64,000 bases of DNA. Source: Halobacteriovoraceae bacterium (GTDB lineage Bacteria; Bdellovibrionota; Bacteriovoracia; Bacteriovoracales; Bacteriovoracaceae). The first letter of the stretch is position 1. Every line of letters starts with the position of its first letter. The position numbers are program-made. The stretch lies in assembly GCA_963719505.1 (NCBI GenBank), contig CAVRCF010000001.1, positions 1 through 64,000 on the forward strand. The letters are read 5' to 3'. Below, piece by piece: positions 9,001 to 12,000 of this stretch.

Positions 9001-12000
9001 TCATTGTGATAGAGCTCATTTGCCCAGTCACCATTTTTCCAACCATATTGTTGAAAGTTAGCTTGCCTTCTTGCTTTGAAATAGTCCCAGATCGTCAGCT
9101 GAGGCATTCCTCGTCTTCCGAAAATAGTTTGATTAATATCACAAAGGCTTTTTGCATGTTGACCTTGTAGGTAATAAGCTTTTCTAGCTGCAAGCTTATC
9201 TTCAAAAGAAGAATTGGAGTCGATATAACCGTCGTTAATGGCACCATTAAAGTCTCCACCTTCAATATTACCATTCATGATATCGTGCTCATACCCATCA
9301 TCATATCCGTTGAAGCTTGGAATTTTTGAAAGGTCAGGAGTCTTATTAGGCAGAACTTGAATACCATTATCTCTTTGTCTTAAAACATCTCTATAGCGAC
9401 CAATAATTTCATCAGCTGATTCAGTAACCGCATTTGATGATGCACGTCCCTCACCTCTTGCAACTGCTGAGGTCATTGTCGCTTGAGCAAGGTAACTTTC
9501 CGCTTCTGCTATCATCTCTTGAGTAGGATTTTTACCAACTAAATAACCATCCCAGATACCTTGATAGAATCCATCAACACAGCCAAGATACTTACCAGCT
9601 CTTTTCGCATATTTTTCGGCCATCCATCTCGATGCACTTACACCATCACGACATACATCTCCTGAGTGCTCATTACCATCATTTTTAGTGTGGGCACAAA
9701 GTGTTCCTTGAATCTCCGCTGGAGGATCAAAGATTGTATTAAGGTCATTTACTGTCCCATTATATTCCTGGGAAAACGCAGCTGGTGAGAGTGACATAAT
9801 TGTCAGAAGCAGAAGGCTTTTTTTCATGATAATCTCCTCGATTATTTTTTTTACTCTTTATAGATTTTTTCAATACTAACAGCTTGCAAAACCTCCGCCA
9901 CTCAATAGGAAGCATTTACAGGACGTGTCTATTTTTTAGACACTCTTTGATTCCTATGTTGTTTCTGGGCAATTATGTCCGGTTAATTTCTGAGCGATTA
10001 TGTCCTATCAGACTTTAAGCGCTTTTTCTGTGTTTCGACTTATCACCATAGTCACTTAATCTTTTCCTATTACTAACTTTACATTGAACTTTTCTGCCCA
10101 TCACATCGAAGCTGTAGCTTCCATCAAGGTGAATATTTATATTGATTTCTCGTCCATAGAAACACCTTTTTTCATCCAACACCCAAGTCACATTCTCCCA
10201 ACTAAATACATTTCCAACCATAATTTTTCGCCTAATCTTTTTACAAAATATAATATCTAGGTCTCCAAAAACATTTTTTCTCCAGGCTTTTTCTTCTTCT
10301 TCTTCGGCTTTGACTGAGAATTGAAAATTGTATGCAGGAATAAAAATCTCTTTTAAGTAATAATTGGCTTCTTCAATATTTGTTATGTGATTAAATTCTA
10401 ACTCCGCTACCAGTCTGTCTTGGAATGTTCTCCAGAGTCTCTCTATTCTTCCCTTTGCTTGAGAAGAACCTGCTAAGATTAATTGAATTCCTGTTTGATC
10501 AAATGCTCTCGAAATTTGTGATTCCCACTCGCGCTCTTTCTTACCATAAATACCTGCTTGGTCCATATAGAAACTTTCTGGCAATCCATAGTTATCAACG
10601 ATCTCCCTAATCACCTTCAGAGAGTTATTTGACGTCTCTCCATAGAAAAATTCAGCACCAACAACAATCCCGGTAGCATCATCAATTCCTCCAATCAAAT
10701 CAGTTCTTTCATCACCGAACCAAGTATGATCACTTCCATCAAACTGAATCATCATCCCTTCTTTTGGAAGTCTTGCTCTTGGTTTATGGCACCGTCTTCC
10801 TCTTCGTTTAGGATGTTTTACAAGGCAATGTTTCCTAGCAATTGAGTGAAGTGCATCTTTTTTGATTTTAATTTCCTCATACTCTTCTATCTTTTCTCGA
10901 AAATGAGTTAGATTAAAGTTTCGATATTGATTTTTTAGAAGAGAGACTATTTTTTCTTCAACTTCGAATGGAGTTTTATTGTGAGGAGTTCGATTAATGT
11001 TTCCATGTAAGACACCAATCGAACCCTTGGCCTTAACTTTATTGATAATTCTCTGAGATTGTCGATACGATTTTCCAATCTGTTCAGAGAAGGAAATTAT
11101 AGTTAACTTACCTTCAATAACATCCATGGCCAGGCGATACTGCTTCAATTCTTTTTGTGACATAGTGACTTTTCCCATTCAATTCCCCTAATAACTGATT
11201 GGAATCAGGGTACATAAATATTATTGAATAGGACATAATCGCTGAGAAATAAGGATAGGACATAATCGTCTAGTTTCTATACACTCTTTGATTCCTACTA
11301 TAAATATCCTTGCAGAGTATTGTTTTATAAAGGGATGGCTATTTTTATTCATCAAAGATTGAAATTTAATAGCTCTTTTGTTTCATTTTCACTTCCAAAG
11401 AGACTCTATTCTTTTTCAAATTCATGATTAATCTTTTTACACATGCAAAATGACAGGACAAAAAATATGTAACTGCTCAATAAAGTGTTCTTCAAATCTT
11501 TAAAAATATTTATTTTGAACTAAACATCAGAAATTGTTTGGCCATCCATCTCTTTTTTGTAAATATATCTCCATGGCATTTGATGAATTAAAAAACATGG
11601 CAATGGGATGGGTAAATACTTGGAATAAAGGCAAACTCAAAAGAAAGTTAAAAGAGACTGCTCAGCGTGCTGTAGACCTTACTATAGAAAATTCAGAGTT
11701 GGAAAAAAAGAATAGTGAACTCATAGATGAAGTTCGTCGTCTCAAAGGTGAAAAAGAAAAACCTAAAATAAAGCCAACAAATACTAGTGACCTAAATCCA
11801 CCTCCGAAGAAAGAACATAAGAAAAAGTCTAAAAAGAAAGATATCGAAGTTGATGAAGAGATTGAAATTTCTCCAGATAAAAATGAACTCCCTAAAGACG
11901 CTAAATTCATCGGTTCTAGAGATGTTGTGGTCCAAGAAATAGTATTTAATCGCAGAAATATAAAATTCTCTATTAAGAGATATTACTCTGAAAGTCTTAG

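Follow-up and report, generated by a model that had tools for sequence, protein, structure and literature searches.

IS1202-family insertion sequences in a family of predatory bacteria insert one target duplication away from a 17-bp host palindrome

Two related insertion sequences (ISs) of this genome, types A and B, are part of a site-specific clade of the IS1202 (ISNCY) family, with transposases at least about 60% identical, that inserts beside the host palindrome TGTCTA-N5-TAGACA. The orientation of insertion is fixed, with the IRR 14–15 bp from the palindrome, so that the target duplication abuts it. The palindrome is a pre-existing host element of a predatory-bacterial family, situated upstream of genes for secreted proteins. 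The transposase may read it directly as a look-alike of the tip of its own IRL, an explanation that we favor with somewhat less than even confidence.

The window, i.e., the whole stretch of 64,000 nucleotides that was analyzed, contains a type A copy of 1326 bp (9957–11282, minus strand). Its target palindrome, the exact TGTCTAtttttTAGACA at 9926–9942, is a host element that precedes a minus-strand secreted-protein gene (start at 9827) by ~98 bp, and is followed by the left copy of the target duplication at 9943–9956 (14 bp, or 15 bp counting 9942). The IRR (9957–10005) is composed of the tip TGTTGTTTCTGGGCA at 9957–9971 and ATTATGTCC repeats at 9972–9980 and 9997–10005. The transposase gene (10015–11178, 387 aa, matching NF033594, ISNCY_2) is read on the minus strand from 11178 to 10015, and the palindrome therefore lies 3' of the gene, at the IRR. 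The IRL (11258–11282) consists of GGACATAAT at 11258–11266 and a 16-nt tip, CGTCTAGTTTCTATAC, at 11267–11282; together with base 11283, this tip forms a 17-mer that differs from the target palindrome by two mismatches. The right copy of the duplication occupies 11283–11297 (14 bp when read from 11284 and 15 bp when read from 11283); the longer reading takes in the last A of the palindrome.

Type A is present in eight copies with 99.8–100% identity and type B in five copies of 1311 bp, the same counts as in the first-pass annotation, and the two types share 66% nucleotide and 59–60% amino-acid identity. The earlier family assignment also stands, as the type A transposase scores 313.1 bits with NF033594 (cut-off 250); the next-best model, IS481, gives 73.6 bits, under its cut-off, and Pfam yields no matches at E ≤ 0.001. 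Read from the translation by eye rather than from an alignment to reference members, the motifs FDGSD, IDDATG, YMDQAG, and IERLWRTFQ supply the DDE triad, the two extra D residues between D1 and D2, and the Q, not K/R, at E+7 that characterize the IS1202 family. Ends of this family start with 5'-TGT, as do the IRR of both types (TGTTGT) and the type B IRL (TGTATA), while the type A IRL is GTATAG, with the preceding T coming from the flanking DNA in most copies. [quoted passage not shown] Of 120 family genomes sampled, only 8 yielded close relatives of the window IS (E ≤ 1e-80).

A census of the whole genome recovered 7 exact palindromes, a further 21 sites that differ at one position, and 185 that differ at two; the exact sites compare with about 0.42 expected from base composition (the first-pass annotation had estimated about 0.4) and with 2 for a reversed-pattern control. 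ISNCY copies lie with their IRR end 14–15 bp from four of the seven exact sites, four of the 21 one-mismatch sites, and three two-mismatch sites, so that for 11 of the 13 copies a site with two mismatches or fewer lies at this distance beyond the IRR. Chance is excluded because such sites occur at a background rate of 6e-5 per position. Another exact site is taken by an IS66-like element at 8 bp, and five of the seven are therefore occupied. These results reproduce what had been stated on the position of the palindrome, just outside the duplication on the 3' side of the transposase gene, and on the occupancy of the exact sites; at the 28 sites with no more than one mismatch, a recount gives eight ISNCY copies where nine had been reported. 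As also noted before, other ISs of the genome ignore the site (0/8, 0/3, and 0/5 copies). The two exceptions among the ISNCY copies are A2, which has a 14-bp duplication and no palindrome, and A6, which has neither. Reciprocal recombination between A5 and A6 was considered as the cause of their missing duplications and rejected, as the flanks do not match. Copy A5 is inserted in a type B IRL, the real tip of which served as a target at 14 bp, and the 17-mer beside C1:698290, formerly described as IS-end-like, is in fact the type B left-end tip itself, and the 14 bp after it also belong to that element. For an orthologous empty site of the window locus, a search with 9400–9956 against the DNA of 40 relatives returned only short chance matches, and four public read runs, which held just fragments of both ISs and no joint skipping an IS, were uninformative on empty alleles.

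The first-pass annotation had seen the pattern in this genome only, but it recurs elsewhere. From 30 loci examined in other assemblies and metagenomes, 20 were evaluable and 18 distinct, and in all 20 the best motif match within offsets of 0–40 bp was found 13–15 bp beyond the IRR. The distinct loci include five exact sites, five with one mismatch, four with two, three with three, and one with five. Loci L024 (read by eye) and L166 are consistent with the same spacing rule, and at L023 and L165 real IRL tips were hit as targets at 14 bp. A filled allele (L091) and an empty allele (L138), 98.7% identical over 153 bp, part exactly at the IS tip, which demonstrates that the target site pre-exists; the empty allele already carries both the 14 bp and the 17-mer. 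Three hosts show no enrichment of the motif (6, 8, and 5 matches vs 16, 17, and 9 for the control), and the IS in each of them is still 14 bp from a motif-like 17-mer, which is a listed site with at most one mismatch in two hosts and has two mismatches in the third (L024). Relatives with 38–52% transposase identity have non-palindromic tips (TGTAATTTT..., TGTGGTTTCC, and TGTAACTACC) and duplications of 16–17 bp, and the motif was absent from all seven insertions examined (four copies in genome G024 and loci L167, L173, and L169), some of which sit in hosts of the same bacterial family. Since the other ISs of the genome and ISNCY relatives at 51–52% identity ignore the site, the palindrome is not a general insertion hotspot.

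Among 24 related genomes of the same bacterial family, the exact palindrome has 82 matches vs 7 for the reversed control; it is present in 21 of the 24, and none of these yielded a close relative of the window IS. Its consensus is about TGTCTAAAnTTTAGACA, with C at position 4, A at position 17, and a centre that is strongly AAAnTTT, and the DNA beside the host sites is not IS-like. In genome G022, all 15 exact sites are intergenic, 36–120 bp upstream of a gene start, and by a crude rule, signal-peptide-like N-termini are encoded by 19 of 20 adjacent genes vs a background of 0.37. Together with the empty and filled alleles, the distribution of the motif upholds the earlier description of a pre-existing intergenic site. 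A further outcome is the definition, for these predatory bacteria, of a conserved 17-bp palindrome in front of genes for secreted proteins and proteases. An extended motif (the 17-mer followed by a C-rich stretch and TGTAA) was unconvincing, with about 13 flanks vs about 9 expected over all sites with at most two mismatches, and a rule that would orient the A-rich spacer half away from the IS was dropped because the spacer is itself near-palindromic. Nor could the TAGACA of the palindrome be assigned as a −35 box, as no consistent −10 element was seen by eye at 16–18 bp.

The same sites are used by an IS66-family element, which in the window follows the ISNCY copy (11469–13219, plus strand, about 1750 bp, ends GTAACTGCTCAATA...) and is bordered by the 8-bp duplication aaaaatat (11461–11468 and 13220–13227). 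Exactly 8 bp beyond its right end lies a palindrome-like 17-mer with two mismatches, TGTCAAttttcTAAACA (13228–13244), and a secreted-protein gene starts 56 bp downstream of it (13301). The transposase matches PF03050 with 94.4 bits (threshold 23.1), which places it in the IS66 family, and scores 127 bits with NF033517 (cut-off 180) on a split 352-aa ORF; the frame of the window copy is split, leaving an open frame of 369 aa vs 554 aa in the eight other copies. All nine copies have 8-bp duplications, and five of them are 8 bp from palindrome 17-mers in this genome; a 39%-identical IS66-like clade of other genomes also uses such 17-mers at 8-bp spacing. Two copies sit inside ISNCY left ends: C2:395750-397059 and the type B copy at C2:178701, earlier regarded as truncated, are instead interrupted by an IS66-like element 8 bp inside the left-end tip and have normal duplications. 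The IS66-like element contains no 17-mer within two mismatches of the motif and its ends are unlike the palindrome, and BLASTP detects no similarity between the ISNCY and IS66-like transposases, by which a DNA-binding domain common to both was rejected. In five assemblies carrying the IS66-like element no ISNCY transposase turned up, nor was the converse found; as these assemblies are incomplete, the missing co-occurrence is not evidence of absence. Separately, in L091 an ISL3-like element, possibly of a third family, directly adjoins the same 17-mer/ATTATGTC boundary.

It follows from DDE geometry that the incoming IRL is joined exactly at the palindrome edge and the IRR 14–15 bp away on the other strand. 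In the mechanism that we favor, the transposase would read the palindrome directly as a look-alike of its IRL tip. This tip is a 16–17-nt near-palindrome throughout the clade (e.g., TGTCTAGTTTCTAGACG and TGTCTAGTTTCTATACA), and in a copy-out-paste-in circle the target 17-mer might replace it at the IRR-spacer-IRL junction; circle junctions with a spacer of duplication length are reported for ISKpn21, of the same family. After insertion, the IRL tip and the duplication would rebuild a palindrome-like 17-mer in the same register before the downstream gene. We count the hosts without motif enrichment, where the IS is still 14 bp from a motif-like 17-mer, in favor of a sequence read-out by the IS itself. 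A link to the IRL tip is supported by the palindrome-like tips of the clade, by the real tips that were hit as targets, and by the relatives with non-palindromic tips, whose insertions lack the motif; within the family, the ISAba32 group and the ISKpn21 circles are precedents. Against mimicry of the IRL speaks that the targets follow the host consensus and not that of the IRL tips (mostly A at 4, G at 17, and other spacers), and the two copies without a site, A2 and A6, also count against this explanation, as does the published view that more than sequence is recognized by the ISAba32 group. Resemblance to an own end cannot explain the use of the sites by the IS66-like element, because the proteins are unrelated and the element has no motif-like 17-mer inside. 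Since an element with unlike ends uses the same sites, a host protein or a DNA structure may mark them, and the abutting geometry, common to both families, suggests either a factor that sits on the palindrome or a property of the palindrome itself. The first-pass annotation was correct that the target is chosen by the palindrome, a reading that has gained strength; the likeness of the palindrome to the elements' own ends may not be the cause.

A tenable, if tentative, alternative is that the site is marked by a putative host regulator, conserved and bound to the palindrome, and that the transposases dock on this regulator or on the bend it makes, with the nearest strand transfer at the edge and the second one stagger away (14–15 bp for ISNCY, 8 bp for the IS66-like element); the left-end tip of ISNCY would then copy the operator to recruit the same protein. 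The intergenic position of the operator-like palindrome in G022 and the excess of signal-peptide-like neighbors fit such a regulator, as do the site and geometry common to two unrelated IS families (with the ISL3-like element as a possible third), the closer match of the targets to the host consensus than to that of the IRL tips, and the precedent of the ISAba32 group at Xer-bound sites that lack a conserved sequence. A mark set by a host protein is harder to reconcile with the other ISs of the genome and the ISNCY relatives at 51–52% identity in the same bacterial family, all of which ignore the site, and with insertions at the site even in hosts without motif enrichment. In a more elaborate and rather unlikely version, the operator of a secreted-protein regulon would serve as the landing pad for at least two IS families, the bound protein being the edge of the ruler; the operator would have been copied into the ISNCY left end, and insertion would therefore restore an operator-like site before the host gene and would place the divergent transposase gene under control of the regulon.

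It is improbable that an intrinsic property of the DNA, such as the A-tract centre with flexible TA and CA/TG steps, favors the palindrome edge without any sequence-specific protein: the geometry common to unrelated families and the AAAnTTT spacer would suit it, but specificity reaches the outer GTC/GAC bases, most ISs of the genome do not use the site, and AT-rich DNA is everywhere in a genome of 37% GC. That the palindrome is carried or made by the IS, as a part, footprint, or relic of an old end, is refuted by the filled and empty alleles, despite the likeness to the IRL tip and the one target that truly is an IRL fragment. Its occurrence in genomes that yielded no close IS relative also speaks against this origin, as do the DNA beside the host sites, which is not IS-like, and the 14–15 bp between palindrome and IS, which vary from site to site and recur as a duplication at the far end.

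Site-specific insertion by single-gene ISs is uncommon, and in the IS1202 family it is reported only for the ISAba32/ISAjo2 subgroup, at the XerC/D sites xrs, pdif, and dif, with both published surveys reporting none for the subgroups with long duplications (bioRxiv 10.1101/2022.12.17.520857; PMC10132070). We take the palindrome to be a target specificity new to an established family, although Supplementary Table 1 of bioRxiv 10.1101/2022.12.17.520857 may already list such flanks. This second, different target follows the same rule, by which the duplication abuts the site, and suggests that measuring from a recognized site is family-wide. One gene and one 17-bp site make a compact, testable system for target choice by a DDE transposase, and the sharing of the site with the IS66-like element poses the question of whether the transposase reads the site or a host factor marks it.

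ISAba32-group elements are separated from Xer sites by one duplication length (5 bp); the subgroup is defined by a 5–6-bp duplication and by an IRL that lies 5–6 bp away from the XerC arm in a 28-bp xrs, and the authors who studied it concluded that something other than the sequence alone is recognized. Our elements share with ISAba32/ISAjo2 the family, the single transposase gene, and insertion in one orientation at a distance of exactly one duplication length from a specific site of the protein-binding type; they fall outside that subgroup by their 17-bp palindrome instead of a 28-bp Xer site, their duplication of 14–15 instead of 5–6 bp, and the IRR instead of the IRL as the site-proximal end. 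IS1397 and ISKpn1 insert into REP/BIME host palindromes, as ISPpu9 (IS110 family) is reported to do, and these are likewise repeated intergenic landing sites usable by more than one IS family. However, REPs are highly repeated structural elements and are themselves interrupted by the insertion, whereas here the palindrome is operator-like and low in copy (7 exact copies), and insertion occurs beside it at a fixed distance, leaving it intact. IS30 inserts next to its own inverted repeats with a 2-bp duplication and has both IS ends and a distinct hotspot consensus as targets; it resembles our elements in that the transposase targets sequences like its own ends, but it belongs to a different family and has no host regulatory palindrome as its target. 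Tn7 with TnsD/attTn7 and the Tn5053/Tn402 "res hunters" likewise insert at a set distance and in a set orientation relative to the site of a sequence-specific DNA-binding protein; unlike these transposons, which need several element-encoded proteins or the resolvase of the target, the elements described here have one transposase gene and encode no targeting protein.

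As read from the sequence, the type A element in the window spans 1326 bp (9957-11282) between identical 14-bp duplication copies, ctctttgattccta, at 9943-9956 and 11284-11297, and an exact target palindrome, TGTCTAtttttTAGACA, lies immediately beyond the left copy (9926-9942). If the right copy is taken to begin at 11283, the duplication is 15 bp long and overlaps with the last A of the palindrome. The sole long ORF of the element encodes a transposase of 387 aa on the minus strand (11178..10015), and the palindrome is therefore on the side of IRR, the end 3' of the transposase gene, outside the duplication. 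The transposase matches the ISNCY profile NF033594 with 313.1 bits (cut-off 250). Inspection of its translation (IDDATG, IERLWRTFQ) reveals the marks ascribed to the IS1202 family in the preprint text, i.e., two extra D between the first two catalytic D and a Q at seven residues past the E (bioRxiv 10.1101/2022.12.17.520857). Two ATTATGTCC repeats are found at each element end, internal to the tips, which differ between the ends: the IRR tip is TGTTGTTTCTGGGCA, and that of the opposite end, IRL, is (T)GTATAGAAACTAGACG in type A and TGTATAAAGATTCGACA in the 1311-bp type B element, both of these IRL tips being two mismatches away from the target palindrome.

Eight type A copies (A1-A8) and five of type B (B1-B5) are present in the surveyed genome (3.69 Mb, 5 contigs, 37% GC). 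At 14-15 bp past IRR, 11 of the 13 copies have a 17-mer with at most two mismatches to TGTCTA-N5-TAGACA, which is exact for A4, B1, B3, and B4, carries one mismatch for A1, A3, A7, and A8, and two for B2, B5, and A5; the duplications of these copies are mutually different. A5 sits in a type B fragment, 14 bp inside the IRL tip of the latter. The palindrome is absent from A2, which has a 14-bp duplication, and from A6, which has neither. The genome as a whole contains 7 exact matches to the motif, 21 single-mismatch sites, and 185 two-mismatch sites, and because sites with up to two mismatches occur at only 6e-5 per position, chance is excluded. These results bear out the first-pass annotation in its description of the insertion at 9926-11297 (14-15-bp duplication, palindrome on the IRR side), its ISNCY assignment, and its tally of 11 copies with and two without the palindrome; the nine ISNCY copies that it placed at the 28 sites with up to one mismatch became eight on recount.

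The first-pass annotation had seen the pattern in this genome only, but it is not confined to it. Thirty loci with ISNCY relatives from species genomes and metagenomes (transposases 67-87% identical) were examined by script, and the best motif match at offsets 0-40 fell at 13-15 bp in all 20 that were evaluable, for which the IRR tip had to be recognisable and the flank 32 bp or longer. The claim that the target is chosen by the palindrome is supported and generalised. With duplicates left out (L096 = L095, L107 = L022), the match was exact at five of the 18 distinct loci and had one mismatch at five, two at four, three at three, and five at one. In the other ten loci the flank was too short (five) or the tip was not found (five); two of the latter were read by eye, with a two-mismatch site at 14 bp in L024 and an insertion 14 bp inside the IRL tip of another copy in L023. 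In another genome, the type B copy L166 lies 14 bp from a site with a single mismatch. Duplications were seen at L021, L022/L107, and L090 only, and most metagenome contigs are probably chimeric across the multi-copy element. A filled locus (L091) and its empty allele (L138, genome G041) are 98.7% identical over 153 bp and diverge exactly at the IRR tip; the empty allele already holds the 14 bp and the 17-mer, and this one pair settles that the palindrome pre-exists, as had been proposed.

More distant ISNCY relatives (38-52% identity) have non-palindromic tips and duplications of 16-17 bp, and the motif is absent at all seven of their insertions that were examined (four copies in genome G024, L167, L173, and L169), and likewise at L172 (42% identity). 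Several of their hosts belong to the same bacterial family. Targeting therefore accompanies a palindrome-like IRL tip together with a 14-15-bp duplication.

Of 24 other genomes in the family, 21 carry the exact motif (82 hits versus 7 in the reversed control), a further sign of pre-existence, and because the spacers are mostly AAAnT-like, the real motif is approximately TGTCTAAAnTTTAGACA. The window transposase has any match in only 6 of these 24 genomes, none above 38% identity, and a sample of 120 family genomes includes 8 with close relatives (E<=1e-80). All 15 exact sites of genome G022 (loci L072-L086) fall between genes, each with at least one gene starting 36-120 bp downstream. A crude rule assigns signal-peptide-like N-termini to 19 of the 20 genes that begin next to these sites (binomial P ~8e-8, with a background of 0.37 taken from ORFs of at least 200 aa in the present genome, not G022); Pfam domains among them include subtilase, papain-like protease, a Clp-like domain, and solute-binding protein. 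The same picture emerges at the unoccupied intergenic sites of the present genome and at both window sites (9926-9942, 13228-13244). Palindrome sites are sometimes tandem. The secreted-protein palindrome is a new finding, and TGTCTAAAnTTTAGACA looks like a putative operator of a secreted-protein/protease regulon in this predatory-bacterial family. At seven of ten reconstructed ISNCY sites the element separates the palindrome from a gene start that lies 58-136 bp away, where the outward-facing IRL tip plus duplication would restore a palindrome-like 17-mer in the same register before that gene.

An IS66-family element of 1750 bp, with ends GTAACTGCTCAATA... and 8-bp duplications, uses the same 17-mers (PF03050, 94.4 bits; NF033517, 127 bits, below the cut-off of 180, with a split ORF scored). 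Among its nine full copies, that in the window (11469-13219) has a transposase gene (11534-13073) split into overlapping ORFs of 174 and 352 aa (open frame 369 aa); in the other eight the 554-aa frame is intact. Five copies have a 17-mer with up to two mismatches exactly 8 bp beyond one end: at the end 3' of the transposase gene in four (the exact site C1:1015621, correctly noted before as held by IS66, window 13228-13244, C2:188315, and the B2 IRL tip) and at the opposite end in one (the A8 IRL tip). Of the remaining four, one has a four-mismatch 17-mer and one a 16-bp variant palindrome, both at 8 bp, and two have none. A8 and B2 were considered as truncated copies, which was rejected, both being interrupted by this element. 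Similarity between the IS66-like and ISNCY transposases was not detectable by protein comparison. When all 213 sites with up to two mismatches were scanned blind, these two were the only abutting IS types, and no palindrome flank was found in three other repeat families: the IS3-like 1232-bp element (8 copies), for which this had already been stated, a 1262-bp IS (3 copies; window 45940-47221), and a 2-kb repeat (5 copies; window 42800-44800, next to tRNA-like sequence).

Eight of 13 examined loci with IS66-like relatives were evaluable; the 17-mer lies at 7 bp in L031 (one mismatch) and at 8 bp in L036 (three), L035 (four), L028, and L032 (five each), and is absent beside the other three. A 39%-identical clade in genomes G102 and G013, with ends GTAAGCGCCCC, has 2- and 3-mismatch 17-mers at a distance of exactly 8 bp on the side 3' of the gene, and a third copy has the 16-bp variant at 8 bp. 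The L100 IS66-like end is located inside an ISNCY IRL. In six insertions (A8, B2, L100, L031, L035, L036) the 8-bp duplication adjoining the 17-mer reads ATTnTGTn, the form found immediately internal to an ISNCY-type left end. The IS66 lineage possibly favours ISNCY left ends over host palindromes: in this genome it occupies 2 of 13 IRL tips, as against 1 of the 28 host sites that have no more than one mismatch. Its convergence on the palindrome is a new finding. Two identical copies in G102 (L147/L153) have swapped 8-bp duplications (gtgaattt/ctttaaaa, ctttaaaa/gtgaattt), which indicates recombination between them. L034 (~553-720) holds an IS66-like right end, 8 bp, and an IS66-like left end, either a tandem/circle-type junction with a duplication-length spacer or an assembly artefact. 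On metagenome contig L091 (1-566), an ISL3-like end (127-aa N-terminal fragment, NF033550 E=1.1e-7) replaces the ISNCY left-end tip exactly at the 17-mer/ATTATGTC boundary; one such junction was seen, and this element may represent a third IS family at the same spot.

The ISNCY element is directed to the palindrome in a fixed orientation, with the duplication abutting it, and it follows from DDE chemistry that the edge of the palindrome is where the incoming IRL becomes joined, with IRR joined 14-15 bp away. A host regulator that marks this edge when bound to its operator is the main rival explanation and a rather doubtful one: it would best account for an unrelated IS66 lineage that inserts at these sites in a likewise abutting geometry, and would account for targets that match the host consensus instead of the IRL-tip consensus, but it would not explain that the site is disregarded by the other ISs of this genome and by close ISNCY relatives. 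We tentatively prefer direct recognition by the transposase, to which the palindrome would be a look-alike of the element's own IRL tip. With the palindrome standing in for that tip, the IRR-14 bp-17-mer arrangement would mirror the IRR-spacer-IRL junction that a copy-out-paste-in circle should contain, as reported for ISKpn21. The look-alike reading draws on the conservation of the palindromic IRL tip, insertions targeted to real IRL tips, and a tip shape that tracks targeting across relatives. We count as further support that in three hosts without motif enrichment (6, 8, and 5 hits versus 16, 17, and 9 in the control) the IS still lies 14 bp from a motif-like 17-mer, with one mismatch in two of them and two in L024.

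The IS1202 family was defined in a preprint and an article (bioRxiv 10.1101/2022.12.17.520857, PMC10132070), whose text describes targeting for the ISAba32/ISAjo2 group (5-6-bp duplication) only, with IRL 5 bp from the XerC arm of Xer sites. Among literature naming ISTde1, at the level of titles and abstract starts, IS target choice appeared only in these two sources; Supplementary Table 1 of the preprint may include relevant flanks. For IS66 and target site, the matches listed contained nothing on such targeting. Site-specific ISs as such are already known, and targeting of this palindrome is a new target specificity.
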